From NCBI GenBank assembly GCA_046294495.1, contig JBKBKV010000005.1:1-55888 (forward strand): a stretch of 55,888 bases of DNA. The letters run 5' to 3'. The DNA comes from Dehalococcoidia bacterium (GTDB lineage Bacteria; Chloroflexota; Dehalococcoidia; Lucifugimonadales; HRBIN23). Below are positions 6,271 through 32,226 of this stretch, piece by piece. A program made the position numbers and the translations under genes. How positions within the stretch are numbered: position 1 is the first letter of the stretch; each line of letters starts with the position of its first letter. A model generated the notes under the pieces. The model was not told where the DNA came from. It searched no databases and saw only the letters and a program-made list of their open reading frames with translations.

Positions 6271-6504
6271 GGCGACCCCCTACGCAGGCGCAACAGGAGG
6301 GCCAGGGCATAGGGCGACAACCCCGGGGCAGGGCGGCGCTCCAATGGGGCGTAGCGCAGGCACTGATAAGCAGGAAGGGTCGCCCGACGGGGCGGCTTCA
6401 CGGCGCAGGCGTAGGCGTAGATGCAGTAATGAGGAAGGCACACCGTCCAACGAGCAGGCGCTTGACGCACCCTGCACCCCGTTCCCCTGACCGAAACAAT
6501 TAGG

Positions 6505-6530
6505 CCAGGATAGGCTCTCACCTATCCTGG
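6505..6530 (-). terminator. Hairpin, possible terminator downstream of the ALDH gene
   Basis: Perfect 10-bp stem CCAGGATAGG/CCTATCCTGG with 6-nt loop. On the minus strand it is followed by CCTAATTGTTTCGG, a weak U tract. It lies about 150 nt after the ALDH stop. Confidence 0.35.
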
Positions 6531-6678
6531 CAAATATCCATCGTCTTTGTCAAGCGCAAAACCCTAACTCGCCCCCCTCTTGCCTTGCAGGCGTCGCCAA
6601 CAATGTAGCAAAACTGGGGCTGGAGCGCCTTCGGCAGCACCATCGGCCACGGGATAGACACCTGCCTAGGGTATCCCC

Positions 6679-11646: not shown

Positions 11647-11913
11647 GCAAGTAGAGCTCGCACACTGGCCTTCCTATCGGTTGCCAACATCCCTTCGGAG
11701 CACCGCCCCACCTCCCTCGATGGACGGCTCCGCATAGCCTGGAAAAGCCAGCAACAGCATCTTCCTGAAGCCCAGTAAGGATATACCCACTGGGCAGTAG
11801 CGATCGCCCATCGCCTGACGGCCCTCTCAGGATCCGACTTCGCCTTTGCCCTCGTGGGGTCCTACAGTCCTGGGGGACTGCGGGGTCTTTCCCACCGGGC
11901 CCGGAGGCGCACC

Positions 11914-12792
11914 TTACTGGCTCATCCCCCTCCCAGTGAACCTTCGGCCCTCCTCCGCCACCTCAGCGCCCCCTCGGCAGGCGATGATCCTTACACCATC
12001 CCGTATCTTCTGCACTACCTCCTCCCTTGTGGCCGCCTCCAGAAAGGCGATGCCGGCGGCCCGACAGGCCCTGAAGACCCGCTCCCGGGCGGCCTGCATC
12101 TCGGGTGGATACGGGGGGTCATGCCTTTCCGGGAAACCCAGTGACATGCCCATGTCTCCCGGTCCCCACTCGGCAAAGGCTATGCCCGGCACCCGTACGC
12201 TCTCTTCCGCCCTCTCCAGTGCCCACCGGTTCTCTATCTTCAGACCCAGCAGGAGTTCACCCTTAGGATTTAGGGGCCATGGGTCCGCTTTCTCCAGGTA
12301 TTCTGGGACGCTGACACCCCATATGGCCGCGGCAGGCCCCTGGCCACCGAAGCCCCGCCGGCCTTCGCCAAGCCCCTCCCCCACCCCCTGGCGGTGGAAG
12401 GGATAGCGGCATGCCTCCACGAAGGCCCTAACCGCCTCGGGCGACTGGGCGTGGCATAGGAGGATGCCGTGCACTCCCCGGTCCAGCACCTGCTGGAACT
12501 GCCAGGCGTTGTATCTAACCTCCTCCAGAGTTCTGCCCGTGGCCGGCACGGTTACGATGACGGCAGGCGTCCTGTAACCGCTTCTGGTTGGGCCGCCATC
12601 TACCAGCCCACGCATGAACTGGGACAAAGCCCCCAAGTCGAAGGGCCCGTGCTCCATGTCTAGGATCAGCACGTCGGCCCAGGTCTGGGCAGCCTCCTTC
12701 CCCCCTTCGTAAGTAACCTGCCCCACCCCGGTGTAGTAGACAGGCTGCCCCCCCTCCAGCAGCGCTATGGCACGATTAACCCTCTTACCCAA
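11914..12792 (-). CDS. HpcH/HpaI-family aldolase (2-keto-3-deoxy-sugar-acid aldolase-like)
   Basis: Typical class II aldolase TIM-barrel layout: ALLEGGQPVYYTG...ADVLILDMEHGPFD...VIVTVPA...HGILLCHAQSPEAVRAFVEACRYP. Adjacent to an enolase-superfamily dehydratase. Confidence 0.75.
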   Translation of the reverse strand: MGKRVNRAIALLEGGQPVYYTGVGQVTYEGGKEAAQTWADVLILDMEHGPFDLGALSQFMRGLVDGGPTRSGYRTPAVIVTVPATGRTLEEVRYNAWQFQQVLDRGVHGILLCHAQSPEAVRAFVEACRYPFHRQGVGEGLGEGRRGFGGQGPAAAIWGVSVPEYLEKADPWPLNPKGELLLGLKIENRWALERAEESVRVPGIAFAEWGPGDMGMSLGFPERHDPPYPPEMQAARERVFRACRAAGIAFLEAATREEVVQKIRDGVRIIACRGGAEVAEEGRRFTGRGMSQ

Positions 12793-12839
12793 TTAGACCC
12801 CTCCCCGACTGTTACTACTCCTAACCTCTGGCTCCTCTC

Positions 12840-13979
12840 TTACCAGTTGGTGAAAGCCCCATCTCTCCGCCGTAACAGTGGAGCGAAGACGGGCCGATAG
12901 TCCCGGCTATACTTCAAAGCCGCCTCCTCCACAAACTCTATGCCCAGCCCTGGCTTCTCTGGCTTTAGAACATAGCCGTCCTCCCAGGGGACCTGAACAG
13001 GGAAGACATCGGGAAGGATGGTCATAGGCTTGACGGGCAGTTCCAGCACGCCGACATTGGTAGCGGACAGGCACAGGTGGGCACACGCTGCCGTGCTCAC
13101 TGGCCCCAGAGGATTGTGAGGCACGATGTCTATATAGTGGGTCTCGCACCAATGGGTAACCTTTAGTGCCTCGGTAATGCCCCCAACGATGCAAAGGTCA
13201 ATGCGGGCATACTGCACCAGTTCCTCTTCAACTACTTGGCGGAAGCCCCATTTGCTGGCCCACTGCTCCCCGGCGGCTATGGGCACCGAGACCTGGCGGG
13301 CCAGGGTGCGGTAACTCTCCGGGTTCTCCGAACGGAGAGGATCCTCCACGAAGAAAGGCCTGAAGGGCTCCAGTTCCCGGCAAAGCCTGATGGAGAAGGG
13401 GGTGTCCAGACGGGTGTGCACATCCAGGCAAATCTCCACCTGGTCTCCCACCTCCTCGCGCACGGCGGCTACCTGCTGAACCGCCTCGCGCACCGCCTCT
13501 GAAGGCTCCAAGACACCGTCAGGTTTGAAGGGAAGGCCCCACCGCACGAACTTCCACCCATCGGCCACTGTCTGGCGGCAACTCTCCAGTAGCGCGGGCA
13601 GGTCACCCTCCCGGTTGTGAGGGTAGCACACCACCTTGTCCCGCACGGGGCCGCCCAGGAGTTTGTAAACCGGCAAGCCAAGGGCTTTCCCCTTGATGTC
13701 CCAAAGGGCGATGTCAATGGCGCTAATGGCACTACACACAACCCGGTCGGCGGGGAAGAAGCACCTCCGAAACATCCACTGCCACAGTCGCTCGGTGCTT
13801 AGAGGGTCCTCCCCCTTTATCAGTTCCGCCAGGTGATAGACGGCCTGTTCTATGGAACGGCCCCAGTATTGGATACCGGCCTCCCCCACCCCGTAGACGC
13901 CCTCGTCCGTCTCCACTTTCACAAAGAAGAAGTTCCTGCCAGCCGTTATGGGAAATGCCTTCACCCCGGTTATCTTCAT
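12840..13979 (-). CDS. Enolase-superfamily dehydratase (D-mannonate/galactonate dehydratase-like)
   Basis: MKITGVKAFPITAGRNFFFVKVETDEGVYGVGEA..., AISAIDIALWDIKGKALGLPVYKLLGG, EDPL metal-ligand region. Paralog of 1953-3101. Confidence 0.8.
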   Translation of the reverse strand: MKITGVKAFPITAGRNFFFVKVETDEGVYGVGEAGIQYWGRSIEQAVYHLAELIKGEDPLSTERLWQWMFRRCFFPADRVVCSAISAIDIALWDIKGKALGLPVYKLLGGPVRDKVVCYPHNREGDLPALLESCRQTVADGWKFVRWGLPFKPDGVLEPSEAVREAVQQVAAVREEVGDQVEICLDVHTRLDTPFSIRLCRELEPFRPFFVEDPLRSENPESYRTLARQVSVPIAAGEQWASKWGFRQVVEEELVQYARIDLCIVGGITEALKVTHWCETHYIDIVPHNPLGPVSTAACAHLCLSATNVGVLELPVKPMTILPDVFPVQVPWEDGYVLKPEKPGLGIEFVEEAALKYSRDYRPVFAPLLRRRDGAFTNW

Positions 13980-14062
13980 GTGGCTCCTCCCTTTGAGTTT
14001 CCCGTCTCTGTTGAAGTCCTCACCTGGAACCTCGCAACCTTGTCAAGCGCAACGGCCCCTCC

Positions 14063-14416
14063 TCAGCATGCACCCCCCCTGAAACCGACGCTGGCCCCTA
14101 ACCTAGGGCAATGGACCTTTTGCACCATAGAATAACAACAAAAGGACAAAGATGCAAGGTATCGTGCACATTGAGCACATGTAAGACAGTTGCGGGGTCT
14201 CCTCTGGATGGCATCCCTAAGATACTCCAAGGGATGCGCCAGCCCAGGGCCTGGTGAGGCATAACGGCGTCGTAAGTGCACAGGCCACGCCAGGGGAGGG
14301 GGTCTTGGGGCGCTCACGGAGTAGAGTGATGACCTCCCGCCACTGCCTCCTCTGGCAAGCCCCACAAATACCCCCAGGGTTAGGGGCAGATGGCAAGGGC
14401 ACGCTACAAAGCCCAC
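14063..14416 (-). pseudogene. MerE-like remnant (CPCHLP transmembrane motif) immediately downstream of merA
   Basis: A GTG-initiated ORF begins VGFVACPCHLPLTLGVFVGLA. The CPCHLP-in-a-helix motif is the hallmark of the mercury transporter MerE. The expected N-terminal part and second helix are absent, and the remaining ORF is Arg/Pro-rich and runs into AT-rich promoter DNA. Confidence 0.25.
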
Positions 14417-14456
14417 CGCCAGGTGGGCCTATCCAGCAACGCGCCTCAACTACCCC

Positions 14457-15905
14457 CTACCCTATACAACAGGTCATCACCGAGATGTCCCGGGTGAAGG
14501 CCTGGGCCGCCAGTTTAATCCCCTCGCTCAATGTGGGGAAGACAAAAACGGTGTCGACCAGGTCTTCCACCTTCATCCTCTGTTGGACGGCCAGGGTGCC
14601 TGCGTGGATAAGGTCAGCCGCATAGGGAGCCACGATATGGATCCCCACAATCTGGTGACCCCGCGGGTTGACCACCATCTTGATGAGGCCTCGGTCCTCC
14701 TTGACCACCTTCGCCTTGGGGACCTGCTCTAGACGGACTGTCCGACAGGCGCAGACCCCTTCCCTCCTCATCAACTCCGTCTCGGTGAGGCCCACAGAGG
14801 CCACTTGGGGGTTGGTAAAGACGGCGTGGGGCACCGCATCGTAGTTGACGGCCTTATGAGAGCCAGTTAGGGCGTTCTCCGCGGCCAGGGCCCCCTCTTT
14901 GGCCGCCACTGTCTCCAGAGCCATCTTCCCGACACAGTCGCCAGCGGCGTAGATGGAAGGAATGCTTGTCTGGAACCACTCATTGACTTCAACAAAGCCA
15001 CCCTTACCGGTCTTGACTCCTACCCTTTCCAGCCCCAGATCCGCGGTGTTGGCCTGAATGCCAGCGGCCAGCAGTATATTCTCTGCCTCCAGGGTCTTCT
15101 CCCGTGGTGTGAAGGAGCGCCGGCGCTTGGCCCCTCCGCCCCCTTGGATAACTACCCTCTGCTTACCATCCCCCTCTTCCACCCGCTCCACCGTTATCCC
15201 CAAGTGGAAGCGGATGCCCTCCGCCTCCAGACACCGCTGGAGTTCTGCAGCCACCTCTGGTTCGTGGCGCGGCAGGATCTGGTCCATGGCCTCCAGCACC
15301 GTCACCTCCGAGCCGAAGTGGGTAAACATTTGGGCAAACTCCAATCCCAGCGGCCCCGCCCCAATGACGATGAGGCTCCTGGGCAACCGCTTCAGAGCCA
15401 GGGCGGTAACATTGGTTAGGTAGCGCCCCGGCTCCAGGCCCGGGATCGGAAGGGGTCTTGTGGAAGCGCCCACAGCGATGAGGATACGGGAGGCACTCAC
15501 CACATCACCGTTCACCGCTACCTCTGTTGGGGAGAGAAAACGGGCCTTACCTTCGCGATAGGCCACCCCCTTCAGGCTCTCCAGCACCTTTTTATAGTTG
15601 CTGTAGCGTAGAGCAGCCACCAGTTCATCCTTCTCGGTCAGGGCAGCCAGGAAGTCGGCTTTGAACTGGTGACCGTCCTGGAGCGCTCGAAAGCGAGGGC
15701 GGGCCGGGTAATAAGCCCCGTCCCCCACTGTTAACATATACTTGGAAGGGACACAGCCCACATTGACACAGGTGCCACCCATGGGCAGGCCCGAGTTGAC
15801 TATCAGGGCACTGGCTCCCAGGTCCGCAGCCTTGGTGGCGGCGGCAAAGGCCGCTGCCCCGCCCCCAATGATGAGCAGGTCATAGACTTTCTGCAAACTG
15901 GACAT
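14457..15905 (-). CDS. merA: Mercuric reductase, core form without N-terminal HMA (NmerA) domain
   Basis: FAD motif [13 protein letters not shown], redox-active [13 protein letters not shown]. The C-terminal tail [22 protein letters not shown] has the vicinal Cys pair characteristic of MerA (compare LKLAAQTF...LSCCAG). Confidence 0.75.
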
Positions 15906-16166
15906 CGCTCCTCCTCTCCTTCCGCTTATTTACCATTTGCCCGGCCCTAGCTTCTTTTCCCTATACACACCCTAACAGCACCCACGGCCGGATCAGGGCA
16001 CCCGCCAGGGCTTCTCCCCCCTGCTTTTTGCATCGCGGCCAGGTGAGGCTGAGGCCGTAGGCTTCATCGGGCCTGCGACACCGGGGACGGCCTTCTCGTA
16101 TAATAATGCCAGGGCTGGTGCTCCGTGTCTGTCTCGTGGGTTACAGAAGGGAGTGTCGAGGGTGTC

Positions 16167-16871
16167 ATGGCTAGCAACCAGCAACAAAAAGCCTCCACTG
16201 GCTTCCCCCCACCACCCCTTAGATCAGACATCATAGACATCACTTTGGCATTACAGGGGCTAGGCAGTGCACAGATGGAAGCAATCCTGGCGATGATGGA
16301 GTATCGCGCTTATTCGTCGGGGGCCTGTATTTTCCAGTTCGGGGAGCCTCACAGGGGTATTTACCTGGTCAAAAAAGGTCTCGTGGAAGAGTTCCGCTTG
16401 ACCGAGAGCGGCACCAGATTGCCCATTGATAGGGCAGGCCCTGGGGAACTGTTCGCCCTCTCTTCCCTGGAAGGAAACTATTGCTGTTCGGCTGAAGCCG
16501 TAAATGACAGTGTTATCGGTTGGCTGTCTTTCCAAAAGTTAGAAGATATCTGCGGAAAATACCCGAGGTTTGCTATGAATTTGGTTAGGATCCTCACGAA
16601 ACGCCTGGGAGAGGTGGAGGAGAGGCTAGAGGACCTGGCCCTGAAGACCCTGCGAGCCCGTGTCGCCAGCGCCCTGCTACAACTCTACGCCGTCCAAGGC
16701 CCCTCTCTAAAGCCGATAACCCACGAGGCCCTCAGCGAGTGGGCGGTCAGCAGCAGGCCAAAAGTGAGCATGGTATTAGAGGAAGCGCAAAGGGCAGGCC
16801 TTATACAACTGTCGCGGGGCGAAATCCAGATCGTGAACCCCGCGGGCCTGCAGGAGTGGGCTAAACTGTAG
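16167..16871 (+). CDS. Crp/Fnr-family transcriptional regulator
   Basis: cNMP-binding beta-roll (IFQFGEPHRGIYLVKKGLVEEFRL) and C-terminal wHTH (THEALSEWAVSSRPKVSMVLEEAQRAGLIQ). Divergent from merA. An alternative GTG start is at 16125. Confidence 0.8.
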   Translation: MASNQQQKASTGFPPPPLRSDIIDITLALQGLGSAQMEAILAMMEYRAYSSGACIFQFGEPHRGIYLVKKGLVEEFRLTESGTRLPIDRAGPGELFALSSLEGNYCCSAEAVNDSVIGWLSFQKLEDICGKYPRFAMNLVRILTKRLGEVEERLEDLALKTLRARVASALLQLYAVQGPSLKPITHEALSEWAVSSRPKVSMVLEEAQRAGLIQLSRGEIQIVNPAGLQEWAKL

Positions 16872-16956
16872 CCCATATCCCCCAAAAGGCTCCTCACCAG
16901 CCCCCTGCAGTGGCCAAACGCACGCCTAGCCAGCCGCACCCTGGCAAACACCGACC

Positions 16957-18319: not shown

Positions 18320-19915
18320 ATGCCCGTTGACCCTGTATCCCTGGAGGTGTTCCGCAACCTATTCGCCTCGGTGGCCGAGGAGATGGGCGTTGCCCTGGGG
18401 CGCACCGCCTTCTCCCCCAACATCAAGGAGCGGAAGGACTACTCCTGCGCCCTCTTTGATCCCCAGGGCAACATGGTGGCCCAGGCCGCCCACATCCCGG
18501 TCCACCTGGGCTCCATGCCCGCCTCGGTGCAGGCGGCTATCGCCCACTTCACCTTCGCCACAGGGGATATCGTAATCCTCAACGACCCCTATATGGGAGG
18601 CACCCACCTGAACGATGTAACCCTGGTGGCCCCCGTCTTTGTGGGGGAGACGCTGGTGGGGTTCGTGGGCAACCGTGGACACCACGCCGATATCGGGGGG
18701 ATGACCCCCGGCTCCCTCCCACTCTCCACCGACCTATACCAGGAGGGTTTCATCTTCCCTCCCCTGAAACTGGCCAAGGGGGGCGTCCTCAACGAGGAGG
18801 TCATAACCCTGTTCTGCCGCAACTCCCGCACCCCCGAAGAGCGCAAGGGCGACCTGGCGGCCCAAGTCGCCGCATGCCGCACAGGGGAACGCCGTCTGCA
18901 AGACCTGGTGCACCGCTATGGGTGGGAGACGGTGCGGGAGCATATGTCCGCCCTGCTGGACTACGCCGAGCGCCTTACTCGCGCCGCCATCCGCTCTATG
19001 CCAAAAGGCTCCTACTCCTTCCGGGATTATATGGACGACGACGGCCTAACCAACGAGCCGGTGCCCATCCAGGTAACGGTGCGCATCCTGGAGGACTCCA
19101 TAGAGTTTGACTGGACGGGGACCAGCCCCCAGCGTCTGGGGTGCACCAACACGCCCCTGGCGGTGGCGGTGTCGGCGGTGCTTTATGTGATGCGGTGTAT
19201 CCTGGGGGAGCAGGTGCCCGCCAACCAAGGCATCCTGCGTGCCGTGCGCATCATCGCCCCCGAGGGGACGCTGGTGAACCCTCACCCTCCCGCCGCCGTG
19301 GCCGGGGGCAATGTGGAGACCTCCCAACGCCTAGTGGATGTGCTGCTGGGAGCACTGGCCCAGGCCCTACCACACCTTATCCCCGCCGCCAGCCAGGGCA
19401 CCATGAACAATGTCCTGGTAGGCGGGCACGACCCCATCCGTAACAAGACCTTCGCCTACTACGAGACCATCGCCGGGGGTATGGGCGCCAGCCCCACCAA
19501 AGACGGCCTCTCGGCCGTCCATACCCATATGACCAACACCATGAACACCCCCGTAGAGGCCCTGGAGATGGTGTATCCCCTACGGGTGCGCCGCTACACC
19601 ATCCGCCGAGGCTCCGGGGGGCAAGGCAAATACCGGGGCGGGGATGGCATCATCCGCGATCTGGAGTTCCTGGCCCCCGCCACGGTAACGGTGCTGTCGG
19701 AACGGCGGCGTTCCCGTCCCTGGGGTTTGCAGGGAGGCGAGCCTGGTCAGCCGGGGGAGAACATCCTCCTGAAGGGAGGGATAGAGGAGGTGCGTCTGCC
19801 TCCCAAGGTTACCCTTCGGGTAGATACTGGGGATTTGGTGAGCATCCGCACACCAGGAGGTGGCGGATGGGGCAAAGCAGACACCCCACCCACAGACCAG
19901 CGAGGTGAAAGATGA
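18320..19915 (+). CDS. Hydantoinase B / oxoprolinase family protein
   Basis: [23 protein letters not shown]...[16 protein letters not shown]...[15 protein letters not shown] is the HyuB signature region. No HyuA-type partner is adjacent. Confidence 0.85.
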
Positions 19916-20352
19916 CCACCAGCCGCATACGCACTGTTACCGTCCGCTCCCTTACCAACTATCGGGTCGAGGTAACCGCCCGGGGCCACACCTTCCTGGG
20001 GGATGAGCCTCCCCCCGAAGGGGAGGATGCAGGCCCCTCCCCTTACGAGTTCCTGCTGGCCTCCCTGGGCACCTGAACGGTAATCACGCTCCTCATGTAT
20101 ATGAGGAGGAAAGGGTGGGCGGTAAACTCCATTACCGCCATCGTGTCCCACCAGCGGGTGCCCGCCAACCAGAAGCCACCACAGGAAGGCCCCCAATCCC
20201 TAGAAGACCTGATCCGCCTGGAGGTTACCGTCCACGGGAACCTGGACGAGGAGCAGAAGGCCCGCCTCACGGAGATTATGGGGCGGTGCCCCGTGCACCG
20301 CACCCTCTCCCGCCCACCTCGCTTTGAGGAGACCCTGGAGGTTGTCCCCTAA
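19912..20352 (+). CDS. OsmC/Ohr-family peroxiredoxin-like protein with in-frame TGA (codon 55), candidate selenoprotein (alternatively a nonsense pseudogene)
   Basis: A single frame runs from ATG 19912 (ATGA overlap with the hyuB stop) through TGA 20074-20076 to TAA 20350-20352. The context is PSPYEFLLASLGT[TGA]TVITLLMYMRRKGW and, later, GRCPVHRTL, i.e. the two conserved OsmC Cys positions, with the first replaced by TGA. Confidence 0.65.
20089..20108 (+). promoter_or_regulatory. Candidate bacterial SECIS hairpin
   Basis: Perfect 8-bp stem CTCCTCAT/ATGAGGAG with loop GTAT. The stem starts 13 nt after the UGA. The apical loop starts 20 nt after the UGA and begins with GU. Confidence 0.5.
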
Positions 20353-23346: not shown

Positions 23347-24894
23347 TCAGGGTGGGAGTGGACGGAACGCCCGGCAATCGGGGCAAAGACCGGTAAAGCC
23401 ATGGAGGTTGGCGATACCCTGCTGGGCCATCAGACTTTCCACACGCTTTACCAAAGCCAGGGGCATGAAGGGGCGGCCACAGGAGCGGCATACCGCCTGC
23501 TCCGTCCTCGCTAGCACCCTAGGGCCTTGGGCAAGGGTAGTGGTGTCCACGCCCTGCCATAGGCTTATGGCCCTCTCGGGGCAGGCGGGAACGCACAGGG
23601 CGCAGGCCGTGCACCGTGCTGGGTTGAAAGTTAGCGCCACTTCCCCCTCACTTTCCTGGATGGCGAGGGCCTGCGGGGGGCAGAGGGTGGCACAGGTGCC
23701 ACAGAGAGTGCAAGCCGTGCTCACCTGCACTACGCCAAGGGGAACGAAAGAGTGCTCCTGATGCACCCTCGCACTGGCGCGCTGGGCCAGGGCCAGAAGG
23801 AGGGCGGGGAGGCCATCTTCACGAGAGGTTTCCAGGGGGGCAAGGGACGGAAGGGTAGCCAAACGGTGCAGGGTATCAGCCTGCGCCCCTTTGTCGGATG
23901 GCAAGATGGCCAGGCGCTCTCGTCCCAAACCCAGGGCCTCCAGCAAGTCGGCCAGGGCCTGTATCCGCCCACGCACGACGGGCGAGGCCCGATGGGGGCA
24001 ATGGGCGGCGTCGGGGAGAGCCACGCCCGTTCCCCCCAGGCCAAAGACCAGCAAGAGCACCTCCAGGGGGAGCATCCCCAGGCAAGGCACCTCAACCTGG
24101 AATATGGAGGGTGGGGGGCTGTCGTCGCCTTGAGGCAGGGCGCCACAGGGGCAGGTAAAGGCGATCACACGCTGGGAGAGGCGTTCTTGGGGGAAGGTCA
24201 GGAGGGCGTGCACCTCGGCCCGCAGGGGGGATATGCCATTGGCAGGGAGGTTTATGGCCTGCACAGGGCAGGATGGAGCGCACAGCCCACAGCCCTCGCA
24301 CCGCTCCCGCACCACCCTAATGGCTCCATCTCCCTCCTCCAGGGCTTGGTAGGGGCAGGCCCCGAGGCACAGGCGACACCCCTGCTCGGCGGCGCACAGG
24401 TCCTCCTTTACTACCGCCACCTCCTGGTAGCGCACTGGGGGAAGGCGAAAGAGGGCGCGCCGGCTAACGGGCGTAGAAAGGGACGCAAGGCGCAGGCGAA
24501 CGGCATCAGGCGATACCTCCGGGGAGGCCTGAAGGCGGGCGACAGCCCCTGCCAGAAGCAGGGTGGCTCTGGCCAAGGCCATCTCCTGGTCAGGGACGGG
24601 CCTATGCCACCCCTTCAGGTCAACGGTGCGGAGGCTCAGGGAGGCAAGGCGCACCCGCTGGACCTCCCGTTCAAAGGCCATACGGTGCTCCTTCTCGGCA
24701 CAGGCACCTACTACAACCCCCTCTGCCTGGCACTCAAGGGCTATTCGGGCCAGTAGGGCAGGCTTCTGGCAGAGCGCCTCTGGCCCGCGCACAACTACAC
24801 CCGGGAAGTGCCCCCCAAGGGAGCGGCGGATGTGCTCCAGGTCTACGCCGTTCAGCCCGGCGCAGTAACACAGGGCAACCAGGATGCGGCGCAT
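23347..24894 (-). CDS. Cytoplasmic polyferredoxin: four CxxCxxCxxxCP motifs, N-terminal MvhD/FlpD-like Cys region, C-terminal Zn-ribbon-like CxxC...CxxC
   Basis: CRLCLGACP, CEGCGLCAPSCP, CTLCGTCATLCP, CTACALCVPACP. N-terminus ILVALCYCAG...EGVVVGACA. C-terminus CRSCGRPF...LCPDCRAF. No signal or Tat motif. Confidence 0.7.
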   Translation of the reverse strand: MRRILVALCYCAGLNGVDLEHIRRSLGGHFPGVVVRGPEALCQKPALLARIALECQAEGVVVGACAEKEHRMAFEREVQRVRLASLSLRTVDLKGWHRPVPDQEMALARATLLLAGAVARLQASPEVSPDAVRLRLASLSTPVSRRALFRLPPVRYQEVAVVKEDLCAAEQGCRLCLGACPYQALEEGDGAIRVVRERCEGCGLCAPSCPVQAINLPANGISPLRAEVHALLTFPQERLSQRVIAFTCPCGALPQGDDSPPPSIFQVEVPCLGMLPLEVLLLVFGLGGTGVALPDAAHCPHRASPVVRGRIQALADLLEALGLGRERLAILPSDKGAQADTLHRLATLPSLAPLETSREDGLPALLLALAQRASARVHQEHSFVPLGVVQVSTACTLCGTCATLCPPQALAIQESEGEVALTFNPARCTACALCVPACPERAISLWQGVDTTTLAQGPRVLARTEQAVCRSCGRPFMPLALVKRVESLMAQQGIANLHGFTGLCPDCRAFRPLPP

Positions 24895-24904
24895 GGCTTA
24901 CCCC

Positions 24905-25612
24905 CTATCTCCGCTTGGGGGGCGAAGCGGTTCCCCTGCGCAGATGCTCAATCACAGCGTTTACCAGCCCCTGCTCATGGAATACAAAAGCCACCGCACC
25001 TTCTGCTACAGTAGCATAGAAGGAGGAGGCGTTGTGCTGAGACAATGCTCGGGCCAAAAGGGGGAGCCACTGGACAAGGTGCTCCTCAAGAAATGCCTTC
25101 TCCTGCTCCAGCATTGCCACACCAGCGGCTAGGTCTTTTCTCCGCCACGCCTGGCCCTCGCGCTCACACAGGAAAGCCATGAACTCCAACTCCACACTGA
25201 TGTGGTCCGGCGGGTATCCCGCAGTGGAGAGGGTAAGGTCGGCGGCCCGATAGTGTTCCAGGAGCCTCGCCAGCAGAAGCCCTGCATCGGCGCCCAACAG
25301 GCCTCGGCATACTCCTTCCCGCGGGGATAGAGGGGCTCTTTCCGTCCCCCGGGAGAAGAGGCGCATATACTCCTCCTGCAAACGCGGGAGGTCCGAGGTG
25401 GTAAGAGCGGTGAGAGCCTGGAACAGGCGTCGCCAGGTTGGAAAAAGGTCAAAGCCCAGAAGGGGATAGCGCTCCAGAACATAAGCCACTTGTGCCAGCG
25501 TGGACAGGCGCTCCCCCTCTGGGTAGAAGAAGAGGTCGGCTAGAAAGCGATAGGCTGCCTGGCGTGCTTGGGCCAGGCGTGGCAAAGGCGTGCCGGGGTA
25601 ACTAGATGCCAC
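24905..25612 (-). CDS. TorD/DmsD/NarJ-family molybdoenzyme maturation chaperone
   Basis: 235 aa, all-helical. RQAAYRFLADLFFYPEG...EEYMRLF...PDHISVELEFMAFL matches the TorD-like family signature (E-Y-x-LF, PDH-x-x-EL-F). Confidence 0.7.
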   Translation of the reverse strand: MASSYPGTPLPRLAQARQAAYRFLADLFFYPEGERLSTLAQVAYVLERYPLLGFDLFPTWRRLFQALTALTTSDLPRLQEEYMRLFSRGTERAPLSPREGVCRGLLGADAGLLLARLLEHYRAADLTLSTAGYPPDHISVELEFMAFLCEREGQAWRRKDLAAGVAMLEQEKAFLEEHLVQWLPLLARALSQHNASSFYATVAEGAVAFVFHEQGLVNAVIEHLRRGTASPPKRR

Positions 25613-25688
25613 AACCCTTCCCTTCCCCCTATCTTATCCCTGCGCCCCCCACGGCGGCTAGGGGCCTCAAGGCCGGCTCGCCTCATCG

Positions 25689-26990
25689 CTACCTTCCTTC
25701 CTCCTGCACCTCCATGATAGGGAACAACTTGATGAAGAGGAGGTATAGGAACATCCCCAGGGCGAAGAGGCCCAGGACAACGCTGTATTCCACCCAGGTG
25801 GGTGCGTAGTAACCGGGGCCGTAGGGCAGGAGGGCACCGTGAGTCAGCGAGGGGACTACGATCAGGTAGCGCTTGCCGATGGCTGCCAGGTTCACCAGCA
25901 CGCCGCTGAGGACGATGAGAGGCAGGGAGTAACGCCTCACAAGGGCTTGCCCAGCGCCAAGGGCGACAGAGAGCACGAACAGCCCGCCCGAGAGCCAGAA
26001 GAGCCAGGCGTATTGGCCCTTCAGCAGAGCATCCGTTACCTGAACCTCGTAGCCAGGGCCTGCATAGCCGCTGGCCAGGAACTCAAGCAGCAGGAAAGAG
26101 ATGTAGATTATGGTGAGCGCCATCAGGAGGTTGCTGAGCCAAGCGAAGACCCGTGGGTTCAACCGCTCCCGCTCCCCCAACACCTCCCGGAGGACGGCTG
26201 CGATGACGATGATAATCCCCGTAGCCGAGACCCCTGCCAGCACCACGAAACTGGGGCCCTGAAGGGCGCTATACCACCCCGGCCGTCCCCACTGGATGCC
26301 GAACACCAGACCCGAAGTGGAGGCTGCCACTACGCCCGCCACCAGCAGGACAAGGGCCAGTCCCAGACTGACCCGCTGGCGCCTCTCCTGTTGGCGCTGC
26401 CTCTGCGCCTCGGAGGTCATGGGGTAGCCTGCGGCTATAGCGCGCAGGAACCTTCGCCACCCGGTGGACTGGCGGGCGAGAAGGGCGGCATCCCGGCGGC
26501 TATCTAGGTAGAGATAGGTGGCAGTGGCCACTAGAGAGGTGATTACCCCCACGCTGAAAGTGCCGAAGAAGGGGGACATGGGCCGGGCATAGCGGAGAAG
26601 GTTCACGATGGCCCTGACGGGCTGACCTACATCGGCAATGATGCTCAAGGCCCCGACCAGCAAGGCAGCCAAAGCCGTCAGACCAAGGGGCCTACTTAGA
26701 GGGTGCAGATGGGAAAGCCCCATCAGGCGGACAAGGGCCAGCAAAACCATAGCCCCAAACCCTACCCCCACCGCGTAAAGCTCAAAGGCCACATACAGCC
26801 CCCAAGTGGCCCCGGCCGTGGTGCCCACATCCCGCATGCCCGTCGCGACCTCCCCTTCCATAACTTGGCGGGCGTAGGCATAAGCCCCCAAGCCCACCAG
26901 GGCCAGGAGGCCCAGGGTAATAAGAAGCCACCCAACACCAACGCGCCCCATGCCGTAGGGAAGAGCCCTCGCTTCTGCACGCGTTGCCAT
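25689..26990 (-). CDS. NrfD/PsrC-family integral membrane quinone-interacting subunit (paralog 2)
   Basis: About 10 predicted helices and highly similar to 30140-31486 along the full length. AAGGAGGAGG lies 6 nt before ATG 26990. Confidence 0.8.
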   Translation of the reverse strand: MATRAEARALPYGMGRVGVGWLLITLGLLALVGLGAYAYARQVMEGEVATGMRDVGTTAGATWGLYVAFELYAVGVGFGAMVLLALVRLMGLSHLHPLSRPLGLTALAALLVGALSIIADVGQPVRAIVNLLRYARPMSPFFGTFSVGVITSLVATATYLYLDSRRDAALLARQSTGWRRFLRAIAAGYPMTSEAQRQRQQERRQRVSLGLALVLLVAGVVAASTSGLVFGIQWGRPGWYSALQGPSFVVLAGVSATGIIIVIAAVLREVLGERERLNPRVFAWLSNLLMALTIIYISFLLLEFLASGYAGPGYEVQVTDALLKGQYAWLFWLSGGLFVLSVALGAGQALVRRYSLPLIVLSGVLVNLAAIGKRYLIVVPSLTHGALLPYGPGYYAPTWVEYSVVLGLFALGMFLYLLFIKLFPIMEVQEEGR

Positions 26991-27039
26991 ATGTATCCTC
27001 CTCCTTGTGTTGTTTGGCACTGAACCCTTGGCTTGCACC

Positions 27040-27570
27040 TTATCCTATACCCTGTCTCACCTTATTCCGCACCACCCTAAACCCAAAGACCACCCGGTGG
27101 CCGTGGTCCAGGTCATGGCAAACCACAGACTCCTGGCTTACCCCCTCTCCCCGGAGGCACCGGCCCACCGCCCATTCCAGACGGGAGCGGACCAGGGGAC
27201 AGAGACCTGGAGTAACAGTGTCTTCTGTGAAAAGGAACCTCTGCCCTACCCGGAAGCGCTGGCCCAGGGGGCACACCCCCTGTGCCTGAATCACGCGAGC
27301 GATGGCCACCACTTGGGGAACCGTGTGCTCCACATTTCGGGACGCCTCCAACCGGCACCCCCCATGCTTTCGCTCTCGCACCCACCCCACAAGAGCCGTC
27401 ACCTGTATCACAAACAGACCAACCACCGCCGCGAGGGCCAGCAGCAGGGCCAGGAGATAGCCGCCAAACATACCAATCGCCAGCAACAGGGCTATGCCAA
27501 TCCCCGCCAAGACCCTCCTCAGAGCCGAGGCCCGGCCTACCTTTTCCACCTCAGTATCAACGCCCTTCAT
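27040..27570 (-). CDS. Membrane-anchored protein with C-terminal TIGR04076-like Cys domain (paralog of 3979-4527)
   Basis: N-terminal helices (VLAGIGIALLLAIGMFGGYLLALLLALAAVVGLFVIQVTALVG), then GVCPLGQRFRVGQRFLFTED..TPGLCPLV..VVCHDLDHGHRVVFGFRVVR. AAGGAGGTGG precedes the ATG. Confidence 0.5.
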   Translation of the reverse strand: MKGVDTEVEKVGRASALRRVLAGIGIALLLAIGMFGGYLLALLLALAAVVGLFVIQVTALVGWVRERKHGGCRLEASRNVEHTVPQVVAIARVIQAQGVCPLGQRFRVGQRFLFTEDTVTPGLCPLVRSRLEWAVGRCLRGEGVSQESVVCHDLDHGHRVVFGFRVVRNKVRQGIG

Positions 27571-27877
27571 GCTCCACCTCCTTAACCCCTGTGCCGCTGG
27601 AGAAGCCCTTCTGAGAGATTTGGGCGATGAACTCCCTTATCCACTTCTCCCCCCTGGCTCTGTAGAAGGAGTAAGGTCCGCCCGAGAGGGGGTTGCGGAA
27701 TATTTCCAGGATCTGCTGGTAGTTCAACCCCCGGCGTATGAACTCCTCCACCATACAGTGGGCTATTTCTTCCAGAATGTCTTCCAGCGGCTCAACGCAC
27801 AGGGGCTCAATATGGTATCCCAAGGGCTTCGCCTCTTTAGGCATACCATTGCCCTTCTGGCTCAGCCCGGTTCCCAT
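27557..27877 (-). CDS. Hypothetical soluble protein (no family recognised)
   Basis: First gene after the terminator. Start chosen at MGTGLSQ (AAGGTGGGGG upstream); an alternative start is at 27937. The product ends 14 nt inside the next gene. Confidence 0.4.
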   Translation of the reverse strand: MGTGLSQKGNGMPKEAKPLGYHIEPLCVEPLEDILEEIAHCMVEEFIRRGLNYQQILEIFRNPLSGGPYSFYRARGEKWIREFIAQISQKGFSSGTGVKEVEHEGR

Positions 27878-27951
27878 ATCTGCCCCCACCTTGCTGGTCC
27901 CCTTTTTCAGTGTGGAGGAGCACGGGCTGGGAGACATCTCCCATGAGAGGG

Positions 27952-27994
27952 GGTTCTATAATAAAAAGAGACGGGATTTTTTATCCCGTCTCTT
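27952..27994 (-). terminator. Intrinsic terminator after the response-regulator gene
   Basis: Perfect 12-bp stem AAGAGACGGGAT/ATCCCGTCTCTT with T5 loop. On the minus strand it is followed by TTTTATTAT. A second hairpin CCATCCCC/GGGGATGG lies at 28026-28047. Confidence 0.75.
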
Positions 27995-28076
27995 GCCCGA
28001 TTGCCGTGGCTCCCCTCAGGCTTTACCATCCCCTCCGAAGGGGGATGGACATCCCCTGCCATCGGGGTAGCGCCGG

Positions 28077-28733
28077 CTAATAAGGAGGCTTAAGGAACCC
28101 CAGGCGCGTGGCGTATTTCAACAGTTCACCCCGGCTCTGCAGGTTCAGTTTCTCCATGATATGCTCCCGATGGGTCTGGACGGTGTGAACGCTGATGCAC
28201 AGCCGCTCAGCGATCTCTCGGTTGGTATAGCCCTGGGCGATGAGGCGCAACACCTCTTTCTCCCGGTCGCTTAGCTTGGCGTATGTCTCCTTCTCCTCAC
28301 CCTTTCCCACTCGGCTCAGGTAGTCGGCCACCAGATAGCCGGCCACGGAAGGGTGAAGGAAGATCTCACCTTTGGTCACCGCTCGTAAGGCCGCCACCAG
28401 CTCGGCCGATTTGGCTCCTTTCACCACATAGCCAGCGGCCCCTGCCTCCAGGGCCCGAAAGAAATACTCGGCATCCCCGTGCATGGTCAGGATCAGCACC
28501 TTCGCTTGAGGGAGGGCCTTCAATATCTTGCGGGTTCCCTCCAGGCCGTTGCCTTCCATCCTGATGTCCATCACCACCACATCTGGGCGATTTTTCTGTG
28601 CCTCTTGGAGCGCCTCCTCCGCGTTCCCCGCCTCCCCAACCACCTCAAACTCGCCCTGCGCTTCTAGAAGCATGCGGAGCCCTTCACGGAACAAGGCGTG
28701 GTCATCCACTAACAGCACTCGGGCTTTGCCCAT
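28077..28733 (-). CDS. NarL/FixJ(LuxR)-family response regulator
   Basis: Receiver domain (VLLVDDH...VVVMDIRM...KVLILTMH) plus a C-terminal GerE HTH (LSDREKEVLRLIAQGYTNREIAERLCISVHTVQTHR). Confidence 0.85.
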   Translation of the reverse strand: MGKARVLLVDDHALFREGLRMLLEAQGEFEVVGEAGNAEEALQEAQKNRPDVVVMDIRMEGNGLEGTRKILKALPQAKVLILTMHGDAEYFFRALEAGAAGYVVKGAKSAELVAALRAVTKGEIFLHPSVAGYLVADYLSRVGKGEEKETYAKLSDREKEVLRLIAQGYTNREIAERLCISVHTVQTHREHIMEKLNLQSRGELLKYATRLGFLKPPY

Positions 28734-29841
28734 CCATGGCCTCCTCAAGAAGCGGAAGCTCCACCTTCACCTTCGTCCCCCTGCCCGGCGTAGAGACCAA
28801 CTCCAGATGAGCACCGATGATCTCGGCCCGCTCTCGCATACCTTCCAGCCCCAGCCCCCGTTTCATCCGCTGGACCTCTTGGAGATCAAAGCCGCGGCCG
28901 TCGTCCTCCACTATGGCCGTCAGACGGTCGTCCTGGAAATGGATCTGCACCCTGGCGTGTTGCGCCGCTGCGTGGCGAGCGATATTGTTTATCGCTTCCT
29001 GCAACATGCGGAACAAGCCCACTTCCACGGCTTCAGGGAGCCTCCTGGCCTCCCCTTGCACCTCAAAATCCAAACTGACCCCCAATGGTGCCAGACAGGC
29101 CCGGGCGTAGGAGTATAGGCCAGACACCAAACCCAGATAGTCCAGAGCCGCCGGCCTCAGGCCCAGGATGATCCGTCGCAACTCCTCCAGTGCCCGGCTC
29201 CCCTGAAGGATGGACCGCTCTATATGCTGACGCACTCGCTCCTGGCCTGGGAGCAGGGAATCCCGGAGGGCTTCTATCCCCATCAGGAGGTTGGCCAGGG
29301 CCGGGGCGGTATCGTCATGGAGCTCCTGAGCCAGACGCCGCCGTTCCTCCTCCTGGGCGTGGATGACCTGCTTCACAAGACGCTGGACCTCCAGAGTCCG
29401 TTCCCGCACCCGCTTCTCCAGTTCCTGCTCCCACCAAGCCCGCGCCTCACTGGCCGCTTTAAGCTGTGAGCACATAGCGTTAAAGCTTTGAGCCAGCCGC
29501 CCGATCTCGTCCCGCCTTGCCGTAGTGACGGGCGGCTCATCCAGCACGCCCCGGGCGATACGGGCCGCGGCTTTCTCCAACTCTCCCAGGGGACGGAGAA
29601 TGTAGCGGGCGTGCAGCCAGGCGCTGGCCGACGCCACCGCCAGAACCCCAAGCCCGAAGAGAGGCACGATGCTTAGCAGCCGGGAAAGGGGCCAGCCGTT
29701 TCGTAAGGCATAGGCCGTGATCAGGCCAAAAACCACCGTTGCGAACACAACACCTGCCACCACCCCAAGAACCACCTGGTAGCACACGCTCAGGTCCCGG
29801 TACAAGGTAAGCGCTCGTCTCAAAACCCCGCCTCCCTGCAT
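28702..29841 (-). CDS. Sensor histidine kinase, NarX/LiaS type (2 TM + HAMP + HisKA_3 + HATPase_c)
   Basis: HAMP-like DEIGRLAQSFNAM, H-box RRLAQELHDDTAPAL, N/G boxes (NNIARHA, EDDGRGF, GLGLEGMRERA). Start at MQGGG with GGGAGGGGAG upstream. Confidence 0.8.
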   Translation of the reverse strand: MQGGGVLRRALTLYRDLSVCYQVVLGVVAGVVFATVVFGLITAYALRNGWPLSRLLSIVPLFGLGVLAVASASAWLHARYILRPLGELEKAAARIARGVLDEPPVTTARRDEIGRLAQSFNAMCSQLKAASEARAWWEQELEKRVRERTLEVQRLVKQVIHAQEEERRRLAQELHDDTAPALANLLMGIEALRDSLLPGQERVRQHIERSILQGSRALEELRRIILGLRPAALDYLGLVSGLYSYARACLAPLGVSLDFEVQGEARRLPEAVEVGLFRMLQEAINNIARHAAAQHARVQIHFQDDRLTAIVEDDGRGFDLQEVQRMKRGLGLEGMRERAEIIGAHLELVSTPGRGTKVKVELPLLEEAMDGQSPSAVSG

Positions 29842-29920
29842 CTCCCCTCCCTTTCCCTGGCAGGAGTATCCTACCCTTCCGCTCTGCCACCCCGCATTGG
29901 GGCCGAGGGGCAACCTCCAC

Positions 29921-30127
29921 TCACCGCTCGGGAAACAGTTCGTAAACCACGGCCGAGAGGAAGGTGAGCATTACCCCCAGCACAAACAACCCCGCCGCAA
30001 AGGGCACCCGGGGGTTGCTGAAGCCCTCATGGACAGGCTGTCCGAGGGGTGCCGCCAGGAAGAAGTAACTTACCACCGCCAGGACCACCCCCGCCACCAG
30101 CGTCAGGACGGTCAGGGCAATACGCAT
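29921..30127 (-). CDS. Small two-helix membrane protein (68 aa), translationally linked to NrfD paralog 1
   Basis: MRIALTVLTLVAGVVLAVVSYFFLAA...AAGLFVLGVMLTFLSAVVYELF. GGGAGGTG lies 5 nt before the ATG, which is 12 nt after the upstream stop. Confidence 0.55.
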   Translation of the reverse strand: MRIALTVLTLVAGVVLAVVSYFFLAAPLGQPVHEGFSNPRVPFAAGLFVLGVMLTFLSAVVYELFPER

Positions 30128-30139
30128 GCCACACCTCCC

Positions 30140-31486
30140 TCATTGCTTCTCCGACCGCCTCTGCAACTCCGCCCTCACCGGTGCTTCCACCGGCACCTCC
30201 CTATGCACAACTTCCATAATGGGGAAGACCTTCATGAAGAGGGTGTAGAGGAGACCCCCCAGGGCGAAGAGACCCAGGATAATACTGTATTCCACCCAGG
30301 TGGGTGCGTAAGCGCCCTCACCGTAGGGGAGCAGGTTCCCCATCGTCAGAGAGGGCGCTACGATAAGGAAGCGCTTGCCGATAGCCGCTATGTTCACCAA
30401 CACCCCTGTCAGCACGATCAACGGCAGGTAGTGACGCCGGGTGAGGGCCTGTGCAAGCCCCATGAGAGCGGAGACGAACAGAAGCCCCCCTGAAAGCCAG
30501 AAGAGCCACGCATACCTGCCGGTAAGTAGCGCCTGGGTCAGGCGTGCCTCGTGGTGGTGCCCAGCATAGCCCGCCGTCAGCATTTCCGCCAGAAGGAAGT
30601 AGAGGTAGATCAAGGCGAGCACCGTCATGAAGTTGCTGAGCCAGACAAAGACCCGCAGGTTCAACTGCTCCCGCTCCCCCAGCACCTGCCTGAGTAGGGC
30701 CGCGATGACGATGAGGAGCCCCGTCCCAGATACCCCAGCCAGCATTACAAAGCCAGGGGCCTGGAGGGCGCTATACCACCCGGGGCGTCCCAACTGGATG
30801 CCAAAGACGAAGCCTAGGGTGGAGTGGGCCGTTACCAGCAAAGGCAGGATGGCCAAGGCTAGCCAGAAACTGGTCTGGTCGTGCCGTTTCCGTTCCTCGG
30901 GGGTGTCCCGGTAGCCCGCCGCCCACAGCCGGTAAAACCCCCTAAAGGGGGTGTCCTTTTGGGCCATCAGATAGGCGTCCCGACGCCCCGCCAGGTAGAA
31001 ATAGACCAGGCTGGCGAACAGGTAGCCGGAGATGACCAGGGTGAAGGTGCCGAAGAAGGGGGACATGGGCCGGGCGTAGCGGGGGAGGTTGATAAGGGCC
31101 CGAAAGGGCTGCCCCACATCTGCCAAGACGCTGAAGGCACCAAGTATGAGTGTTATCACCGTCAATAACTCGGCCGTGCGGGAGACGGGCCGCAGATAGG
31201 AGAGGTTCATAACCCGCACCAGGGCCGCCACGGTGATGCCCGCGAAACTCACCCCTACGAAATAGACCACGAAGGCGATATATAGCCCCCACGGGGCACC
31301 GCCCATAGTGCCCACATCCCGCATCCCCGTAACGATCTCCCCTTCCATAAGTTGACGAGAGTAGGCGTAAGCCCCCAGTCCCACCAGGGCCAGGAGGCCC
31401 AGCGTCGCCATAAACCACACTGCGCCCAACCGCCCTATGCCATAAGGGAGCCTTTCAAGCCGTGGAGCCTCGACCTTTTCCACCAT
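30140..31486 (-). CDS. NrfD/PsrC-family integral membrane quinone-interacting subunit (paralog 1)
   Basis: About 10 predicted helices. Start at MVEKVEAPRLERLPYG, 2 nt after the FeS-subunit stop, with GGGAGGGTG upstream. Confidence 0.85.
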   Translation of the reverse strand: MVEKVEAPRLERLPYGIGRLGAVWFMATLGLLALVGLGAYAYSRQLMEGEIVTGMRDVGTMGGAPWGLYIAFVVYFVGVSFAGITVAALVRVMNLSYLRPVSRTAELLTVITLILGAFSVLADVGQPFRALINLPRYARPMSPFFGTFTLVISGYLFASLVYFYLAGRRDAYLMAQKDTPFRGFYRLWAAGYRDTPEERKRHDQTSFWLALAILPLLVTAHSTLGFVFGIQLGRPGWYSALQAPGFVMLAGVSGTGLLIVIAALLRQVLGEREQLNLRVFVWLSNFMTVLALIYLYFLLAEMLTAGYAGHHHEARLTQALLTGRYAWLFWLSGGLLFVSALMGLAQALTRRHYLPLIVLTGVLVNIAAIGKRFLIVAPSLTMGNLLPYGEGAYAPTWVEYSIILGLFALGGLLYTLFMKVFPIMEVVHREVPVEAPVRAELQRRSEKQ

Positions 31487-31488
31487 GC

Positions 31489-32226
31489 TTACACCCTCCC
31501 TTTCACTTTCTCCATCTGCCGAACCGCAGTGCCGGGTGGCTGCCCTATGTAGTAAACCCGGGGCTGGGTATTCCACTCCTCCAGCAGGCGGAAGTGGGGC
31601 TTGCGCTTCAGAATGCGTGAGACAATACTGTTGGGGTCATCCAGGTCGCCGAAGTGGAGGGCGAAGGCAGGGCAATTGGCCACGCAGGCGGGCTGAAGCC
31701 CCTTCTCCACCCGCTGGACGCAGAAGGTGCACTTCTCGATCACGCCCTTTATATGGCCCCCCCCAGCGATGCGCCGCCTCTCAGGGCCGTAAGAGGCGGC
31801 CAGGTCGGGGTTCTTGTAGGGCGGGGTAGTGCCATTGGTTCGGGAGGCCAGGGCCTTGTCTTCCTTCCAGTCCAGGTAGTAGTTCTTCTTGGGTGCCTTC
31901 CAGTTGAAGTAGTTGACACCGTAAGGGCAGGCCACCTGGCAGTATCTGCACCCGATGCACCTCTCCCAGTCGGTGGCCACCAGCCCGTCCTCCCGTTTGT
32001 AGCGTGCCCCCACAGGACACACCTTCACGCAGGGGGGATTGTCGCAGTGCTGGCAAGGGCGAGGCAAGAACCAAACGCGGGTGTTGGGATATTGGCCCTC
32101 CTCAAAACGGAAGACATACATCCAGAAGACGGCCTGGGGGGTGTTGTTCTCCACTTTGCAGGCCTCCATGCAGGCCCGACACCCCATGCACCGCTCCAGG
32201 TCTATGACCATGCCGTATTTGGCCAT
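31489..32226 (-). CDS. Four-cluster [4Fe-4S] electron-transfer subunit (PsrB/NrfC/DmsB type)
   Basis: CMGCRACMEAC, CQHCDNPPCVKVCP, CIGCRYCQVACP, CTFC...CVANCP. No own signal peptide, as expected for a Tat hitch-hiker. Confidence 0.9.
   Translation of the reverse strand: MAKYGMVIDLERCMGCRACMEACKVENNTPQAVFWMYVFRFEEGQYPNTRVWFLPRPCQHCDNPPCVKVCPVGARYKREDGLVATDWERCIGCRYCQVACPYGVNYFNWKAPKKNYYLDWKEDKALASRTNGTTPPYKNPDLAASYGPERRRIAGGGHIKGVIEKCTFCVQRVEKGLQPACVANCPAFALHFGDLDDPNSIVSRILKRKPHFRLLEEWNTQPRVYYIGQPPGTAVRQMEKVKGRV

Follow-up and report, generated by a model that had tools for sequence, protein, structure and literature searches.

We describe here an OsmC-family gene at positions 19912-20352 (plus strand) of a 55,888-nt stretch of DNA from a Dehalococcoidia bacterium (this whole stretch is called the window below), in which an in-frame UGA is very likely read as selenocysteine (Sec). 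Starting with the ATG at 19912, 54 sense codons precede a TGA at 20074-20076, and 91 further codons in this frame lead to TAA at 20350-20352. Read through the TGA, this complete open reading frame (ORF) encodes 146 residues, with the predicted Sec at position 55 (U55) and a Cys at position 126 (C126), and its translation matches the Pfam OsmC profile when U is entered as C. The program-made list of ORFs shows just the distal 85-codon piece, 20095-20352. An earlier note on this DNA had pointed out both the interrupted frame and the shortened entry in the list, and translation confirms them. The in-frame TGA stands between GPSPYEFLLASLGT and TVITLLMYMRRKGW, with GRCPVHRTL farther on, as quoted in that note.

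The gene directly follows an orphan Hydantoinase_B (HyuB-family) gene at 18320-19915 on the same strand, which is full-length by Pfam (PF02538, E=4e-223) and ends with the TGA at 19913-19915. Its stop overlaps the start of the OsmC gene as ATGA, in agreement with the earlier description. A Shine-Dalgarno-like GAGGTG is read directly from the sequence at 19902-19907 (plus strand), 4 nt 5' of the ATG at 19912.

Protein family and the position of the UGA

When Cys is put in for the TGA, the translation matches Pfam OsmC (PF02566) with 63.2 bits (E=3e-17, cut-off 27.5) over profile positions 1-98 of 100. The UGA at 20074-20076 (plus strand), which we predict to be the Sec codon, occupies the position of the first (peroxidatic) Cys of the family. 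In the alignments its column is that of the invariant Cys of the L-G-x-C-T motif, present in 15/15 and 36/36 Cys homologs. The Cys-form loci have TGT or TGC at the aligned codon. The predicted resolving residue, Cys126 of CPVH, is encoded by TGC at 20287-20289 (plus strand), and C-P-V-H is invariant across all aligned homologs. The spacing between U55 and C126 is 71 residues, compared with 64 in the syntenic Cys ortholog described below, and both columns are invariant. The comparison with Cys-containing orthologs, proposed in the earlier note as a check, thus places the TGA exactly in the conserved Cys column and finds the second Cys of the pair as well.

By sequence, we assign the protein to the small COG1765/YhfA-like third group of the OsmC/Ohr superfamily. 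In Ohr/OsmC proteins the peroxidatic and resolving Cys, about 60 residues apart, reduce hydroperoxides with lipoyl groups as the reductant, and the third group, formed by small homologs, is poorly characterised (PMC5384416). With the Ohr/OsmC thiol peroxidases (Xylella Ohr, E. coli OsmC) the window protein shares the fold and a redox pair about 60-70 positions apart, of which the first member is located on the long helix and the other belongs to a C-P motif. However, unlike these, it belongs to the third group and has a predicted Sec instead of Cys as the first catalytic residue. The catalytic Arg/Glu signature of the Ohr/OsmC subfamilies is not recognised in it with certainty. A Glu in the loop preceding the long helix (E32 of D-E-P) is invariant in the alignments. 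The same loop contains no invariant Arg, and the nearest nearly invariant Arg is R66, located after the Sec on the helix, as judged from the alignments.

The AlphaFold2 (AF2) model of the 63%-identical Cys ortholog, taken in place of the window protein itself, has a predicted local distance difference test (pLDDT) score of 86.7. In a Foldseek search of the PDB with this model, all the matches listed (top 50) are OsmC/Ohr-type structures, with template modelling (TM) scores up to 0.72. By this model, the family of the window gene has the OsmC alpha/beta fold. The closest solved structure by sequence is PDB 9wo1 ('Osmotically inducible protein C', 400 aa), with the OsmC domain at its C-terminus. 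We also note some Cys-form homologs of about 400 aa, close to 9wo1 in length (L020:9176-10393 and L027:9161-10261), where OsmC is fused to an N-terminal alpha/beta-hydrolase-like domain.

The hairpin and its conservation in two clades

A spacer of 12 nt (20077-20088, plus strand) separates the TGA from a predicted bacterial Sec insertion sequence (SECIS) stem-loop at 20089-20108 on the same strand. Its perfect 8-bp stem, CTCCTCAT/ATGAGGAG in DNA with loop GTAT (arms 20089-20096 and 20101-20108), corresponds to CUCCUCAU/AUGAGGAG with the apical loop GUAU, and the hairpin alone has a folding energy of -10.2 kcal/mol. The loop begins 20 nt after the TGA. The hairpin had been described in the same form in the earlier note, which called for a SECIS prediction. 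According to the published bacterial SECIS (bSECIS) model, the apical loop has 3-9 nt with a G as its first or second nucleotide, usually followed by G or U, the upper stem has 4-16 bp, the minimum free energy (MFE) is -7.5 kcal/mol or lower, and the distance from UGA to loop is 16-37 nt (PMC13188914). The window hairpin agrees with the model in every respect (4-nt loop, G then U, 8-bp stem, -10.2 kcal/mol, 20 nt). A scan of the whole window with Rfam found the tRNA alone and no match to a SECIS family.

The paradigm of such elements is the SECIS of E. coli fdhF, a stem-loop that lies in the coding sequence, shortly 3' of the UGA, and has its upper stem about 11-12 nt away and G/U in the apical loop. 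The window hairpin is similar in its placement inside the coding sequence, in the distance of the upper stem and in the G/U of the apical loop. However, it has no sequence similarity to the fdhF element, there is no bulged U in clade 1 (the window gene and its close relatives) and the loop is GUAU.

Taken in a single sequence, the hairpin is suggestive, not decisive. Among the 1120 TGA triplets of the window, 28 (2.5%) precede an equally stable hairpin that complies with the bSECIS model. A perfect stem of 8 bp whose loop has a G at position 1 or 2 would be expected 0.006 times within the allowed range of spacing. The hairpin rises above chance because it is conserved in the relatives, and we used position-specific tests since those based on total MFE are uninformative in this GC-rich sequence.

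The homolog search returned three close relatives, all annotated as truncated proteins of 84-85 residues: a Dehalococcoidia metagenome-assembled genome (MAG; GCA_025060295.1), 'bacterium HR23' (GCA_002923335.1) and a set of Logan contigs. The layout of 54 codons, TGA and 91 codons directly after HyuB recurs in them (loci L004-9, L001/2 and L003/16). Their proteins are 81-88% identical to that of the window, and all three lineages retain the TGA and the hairpin. The four-way DNA alignment shows the TGA unchanged and about 50 nt around it nearly invariant, synonymous positions included, with the rest of the gene varying freely. The spacer between UGA and hairpin has 1 variable position among the clade-1 relatives, again with the synonymous sites counted. 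In three relatives the U-A pair closing the loop is changed to U-G.

The ratio of nonsynonymous to synonymous change (dN/dS, Nei-Gojobori, clade-1 comparisons) is 0.04-0.07 over 48 codons 5' of the TGA, at a dS of 0.5-1.4, and 0.19-0.36 over the part 3' of it. The low values on both sides of the TGA therefore indicate that both halves are translated in the frame of the ATG at 19912. In codons 50-66 (20059-20109, plus strand) synonymous change is suppressed, with dS of 0.08-0.17 versus 0.39-1.41 in the flanking coding sequence, which is about 5-fold lower over the hairpin zone. This drop points to a constraint at the RNA level that overlaps with the codons coming right after the TGA.

Purifying selection on both halves would likewise be predicted for a split gene, where a 54-aa polypeptide and an 85-aa polypeptide started at ATG 20095 assemble an OsmC-like fold devoid of the first catalytic residue. 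Such an arrangement could also draw on the conservation of ATG 20095 in clade 1 and on the presence of an ATG 3 codons past the TGA in the second clade described below. However, ATG 20095 is buried in the hairpin stem, and direct reading of the sequence finds no purine-rich site comparable to GAGGTG in front of it. With such a break, exactly the invariant catalytic residue would be lost and the long helix severed, and the freeze of synonymous sites, together with the hairpin-specific choice of codons, would be left unexplained. We regard the split gene as very improbable.

The syntenic Cys ortholog (L010-13), 63% identical to the window protein, carries TGT at the TGA column. It has HyuB upstream and trypsin-PDZ, SBP_bac_5, UPF0102 and RNase HII genes downstream, as in the Dehalococcoidia MAG. 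The Y-A-R-R codons of this ortholog are TAC GCA CGG CGC, and those of the Sec forms are TAT (A/G)TG AGG AGG. Because CGG CGC in place of AGG AGG destroys the stem, the 3' arm exists only alongside the TGA. We note that AGG makes up 13% of the Arg codons in the window.

A second clade comprises 9 Chloroflexota loci, found by local tblastn over the loci of the genome and metagenome scans (L017, L018, L019, L021, L024, L025, L028, L029 and L030), with complete chromosomes among them. The gene is carried by the complete chromosomes OZ242272.1, OZ242329.1, OZ244775.1, OZ244798.1 and OZ219802.1. The proteins of the second clade have 42-48% identity, with TGA at the catalytic-Cys column (for example, L018:10148-10150). 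The hairpin of this clade, CUG-CGGC/UGUAU/GCCG-A-CAG, has the same offset as in clade 1 and a different sequence. It also complies with the bSECIS model, with the loop UGUAU, a stem of 4+3 bp with a bulged A, 19-nt spacing and -9.3 kcal/mol. The bulge shifts the register and rules out column-wise pairing, hence the stem pairs were counted by rank from the stem base; 4 of the 7 pairs shared by the two clades differ on both sides. In total, the hairpin is present at the common offset in 13/13 Sec-form loci and in 0/9 Cys-form loci. The metagenome scan and a search with the 54-aa N-terminal fragment added few extra sequences.

In place of HyuB, the clade-2 loci have genes for IlvD, an AlkZ-like DNA glycosylase and a ceramidase-like protein as their neighbours. 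In a crude neighbour-joining tree the two Sec clades lie apart, each beside Cys forms, which suggests at least two switches between Cys and Sec. The question posed in the earlier note, whether orthologs keep the TGA with its hairpin or carry TGC/TGT, thus has an answer: both are retained in three lineages, TGT stands without a hairpin in the syntenic Cys ortholog, and in the second clade TGA goes with a compensated hairpin.

These comparisons bear on whether the hairpin is a by-product of the amino acid sequence, or has some other role unrelated to the TGA, such as mRNA stability or pausing. The 5' arm CTCCTCAT does code for the conserved L-L-M and recurs in the Cys ortholog, and comparable hairpins follow TGA triplets by chance at the rate given above in this GC-rich window. 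However, the 3' arm occurs in the Sec forms only and requires the rarer AGG AGG together with a substitution of A to M/V. Moreover, the hairpin keeps one offset in all of the Sec forms and in none of the Cys forms, and the two clades differ from each other by compensatory changes. Hence, an origin of the hairpin unrelated to the TGA has next to no probability in our view.

Could the TGA simply be a nonsense mutation, leaving an OsmC pseudogene or a truncated peptide of 54 residues? Gene callers and the public records of the relatives take the TGA for a stop and yield nothing but pieces of the gene, one of 85 aa ('OsmC family protein') and one of 54 aa (hypothetical protein), and no Sec machinery is seen in the window and 34 related loci. 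Against this, the TGA is kept in 4 clade-1 lineages at dS up to 1.4 and in the 9 loci of the second clade, both halves are under purifying selection (dN/dS 0.04-0.36), and the stop lies exactly at the catalytic-Cys column. We therefore see hardly any probability of a nonsense mutation here.

Three further structures were considered in and around the hairpin. A lower helix flanking it (CAUC/GGUG, CCAUG/CGUGG) was dropped, as its residues are conserved in the Cys forms and similar pairings are found there too. Two more perfect 8-bp hairpins lie within the OsmC gene, at 20019-20043 (AGGGGAGG/CCTCCCCT) and 20118-20139 (GGCGGTAA/TTACCGCC). Neither is fully kept in the sequences of the relatives, and both are probably by-products of a Gly/Pro-rich, GC-rich coding sequence.

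Proposed decoding of the UGA

Purifying selection acts on one frame both before and after the UGA, the latter lies at the catalytic-Cys column, and a conserved and covarying hairpin stands at the SECIS position. Hence, we consider it very likely that 19912-20352 is a single gene for a 146-residue OsmC-family protein, with the UGA at 20074-20076 decoded as Sec and the hairpin acting as SECIS. The proposal of Sec at the catalytic Cys, put forward in the earlier note, is supported by the invariance of the Cys column, by the TGA and hairpin of three relative lineages, by the dN/dS values and by the compensated hairpin of the second clade.

The remaining alternative is that the UGA is read through with no use of selenium, by a near-cognate tRNA (Trp or Cys) or after reassignment of the codon, and that the hairpin is a mere stimulator. 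TGA is the least used stop in the window: of the 38 Pfam-supported genes 21 end with TAG, 9 with TAA and 7 with TGA, with one entry outside the tally. Also in line with such read-through, selA, selB and selD were not found in the window and the 34 related loci. However, TGA terminates HyuB and at least 6 other Pfam-supported genes at their expected ends. As TGA thus terminates at least 7 such genes, the genetic code is standard. Furthermore, a single in-frame TGA was found among about 50 genes of the window, the redox-Cys position and the geometry of the hairpin match Sec insertion specifically, and Sec forms are already known in the OsmC family (PMC1088965). We regard selenium-free read-through as unlikely to a high degree, and we infer that selenium is incorporated at the UGA. 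As a separate observation, few TGA and many TAG stops are unusual for a sequence of 62% G+C.

Sec-containing OsmC proteins are not without precedent. An 'OsmC-like protein' (COG1765/PF02566, motif UxxT) was predicted as a selenoprotein family in the Sargasso Sea metagenome by Zhang, Fomenko & Gladyshev in 2005 (PMC1088965), so the earlier note was right to mention such proteins from metagenomic surveys. The family is still listed in reviews of 2022 and 2026 (PMC9312934, PMC13188914). The window gene shares with the 2005 family the Pfam family, Sec in place of the first conserved Cys and the existence of Cys-containing homologs, as well as a SECIS-type hairpin directly 3' with a G in a small apical loop. 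On the other hand, the motif in the window is U-T-V-I-T, with Thr at +1 and +4 and not at +3, which differs from UxxT when the motifs are compared to the letter. The hosts also differ, being terrestrial and thermal Chloroflexota here and marine plankton in the case of the 2005 family.

In the pathway that we propose, by analogy to the established bacterial one, the hairpin at 20089-20108 would act as a bacterial SECIS. When the ribosome reaches the UGA, a complex of SelB, GTP and Sec-tRNA(Sec), positioned on the GU-containing apical loop, would deliver Sec in place of termination by release factor 2. By analogy to the family, the selenol would then be located on the long helix at the position of the peroxidatic Cys, with the thiol of Cys126 (CPVH) at the resolving position. 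Reduction of the hydroperoxide would give first a selenenic acid and next a selenenylsulfide, and a dithiol would recycle the latter, as lipoylated proteins do in Ohr/OsmC. The product is very likely a small OsmC-type redox protein, probably a peroxidase; both this activity and its reductant are suggested by comparison with characterised members of the family.

Several observations weigh against this reading. First, the genes for Sec insertion were not found where we searched, which is the 56-kb window and 34 related loci. Pfam scans of about 50 window ORFs gave no selA, selB or selD product. Neither did tblastn with E. coli SelA, SelB and SelD (queries checked against PDB 8uzw, 5lzb and 3u0o) give matches in the window and the 34 loci. 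No tRNA-Sec was found by ARAGORN, run on the window and on 23 loci out of the 34, and the sole tRNA of the window is tRNA-Ser(UGA). Second, no other selenoprotein gene was found in the window, where 88 TGA-bridged ORF pairs were listed and the gene-extending ones were read. Third, the stem is invariant within each clade, and covariation consists of one contrast between the clades and one change of U-A to U-G. The folding energy of the region is unexceptional (z=-1.74 versus shuffles), and by total MFE an equally good fold is reached by 14% of synonymous resamples. Fourth, and relevant to the peroxidase part, such activity is poorly documented in the third Ohr/OsmC subgroup (PMC5384416).

Finally, the window protein scores 50.1 bits on NCBIfam NF041052 (OsmC_like_Se), under the curated cut-off of 95. 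The same profile is nevertheless its best NCBIfam match, covering residues 9-143 of 146. The scores are 38-41 bits for Sec forms of clade 2 and 40-64 bits for Cys homologs. By its threshold, the Chloroflexota Sec forms lie outside the curated OsmC_like_Se family of NCBI, though from their sequences they would work alike.

Among the TGA-bridged ORFs of the window, the OsmC site alone pairs a real gene frame with a compliant hairpin. The SucD gene, a gene for a HesB-like protein and an unknown 206-aa ORF were considered as selenoprotein candidates and set aside, as none of them has a credible Sec site. As for the host, Chloroflexi carry selenoproteins (PMC1794560), and two Dehalococcoidia are within the ten most selenoprotein-rich bacteria of BSepDB (PMC13326102), which makes the Sec trait plausible in this lineage. 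We infer that the source genome encodes the Sec machinery.

Gene neighbourhood and significance

Judged by the ATGA overlap, the OsmC gene is translationally coupled to the orphan HyuB gene. The tight coupling mentioned in the earlier note is real and is conserved in this lineage, as HyuB is adjacent in all the clade-1 relatives and in the Cys ortholog, with a HyuB protein identity of 88-94%, above that of the OsmC protein. The ATGA-type overlap is found in all clade-1 Sec forms; in the Cys ortholog the two genes overlap by 11 nt instead. The coupling is absent from the second clade. Since HyuB stands next to the Cys form too and not next to clade 2, the coupling is a trait of the lineage unrelated to Sec. 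A HyuA-type gene was not found in the window by the Pfam scans of about 50 ORFs. The best NCBIfam match of HyuB is the caprolactamase subunit beta, far under the cut-off (279 vs 1000 bits).

We tentatively suggest a wider scenario, which we hold as possible but rather doubtful. Sec would have replaced the peroxidatic Cys at least twice independently in third-group OsmC-like proteins of Chloroflexota, with a SECIS built de novo each time on corresponding codons, the loop on (M/L)-Y and the arms by recoding of L-L/R-R or L-R/A-D-R. Neither lineage would belong to the curated OsmC selenoprotein family. The coupling to the orphan HyuB in the thermophilic lineage might hint at an unrecognised selenium-dependent partnership; a HyuA-less enzyme of the hydantoinase/oxoprolinase type could, for instance, receive redox protection or be activated in this way.

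Other parts of the window contain several further features. A 5.3-kb segment at 11647-16956, between tRNA-Ser(UGA) and the gene for E1-beta, carries genes for an HpcH-like aldolase, an MR_MLE enolase-superfamily protein, a 117-aa ORF, MerA and a Crp-family regulator. In the related contig L005 an identical tRNA (94/94) lies 22 nt from E1-beta, and the segment therefore looks like a tRNA-adjacent insertion or deletion. Within it, the ORF at 14457-15905 (minus strand) encodes a pyridine-nucleotide disulfide oxidoreductase that scores above the equivalog cut-off for MerA, mercury(II) reductase (TIGR02053, 525 vs 454 bits), and its assignment as a lipoamide dehydrogenase partner was dropped on this ground. 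A strong 10-bp hairpin, GCCAGGAUAG/CUAUCCUGGC (6504-6531, -17.1 kcal/mol), lies in the gap of about 400 nt from a dCTP deaminase-like gene to an aldehyde dehydrogenase gene and may be a terminator or a regulatory element. A cluster at 23347-35744 (minus strand) encodes a TAT-exported molybdopterin oxidoreductase (900 aa), two NrfD-type membrane subunits, a TorD/NarJ-type chaperone and a 515-aa poly-ferredoxin with an MvhD/FlpD-like domain; a LuxR-type two-component system interrupts the cluster. No in-frame TGA occurs in the catalytic subunit of this oxidoreductase.

In public records the selenoprotein gene is split into a 54-aa hypothetical protein (NZ951_01615; HRbin23_00075) and an 84-85-aa protein named 'OsmC family' or hypothetical (HRbin23_00076), at loci L001:9818-10258 and L003:9818-10255. 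The halves are called as separate genes in the relatives probably because the threshold of NF041052 is not reached. Clade 1 and the second Chloroflexota clade are thus probably missing from selenoproteome counts.

We note that the locus represents a new lineage of a selenoprotein type predicted already in 2005, and it does not change in principle what is known. Its value is mainly for annotation and for studies of the evolution of SECIS and of Sec/Cys exchange. The two differently built SECIS elements at equal codon positions are useful for following how a SECIS evolves inside a coding sequence. The locus also provides a clean natural pair of Sec and Cys orthologs in conserved synteny, useful for asking why Sec is preferred at the peroxidatic site.

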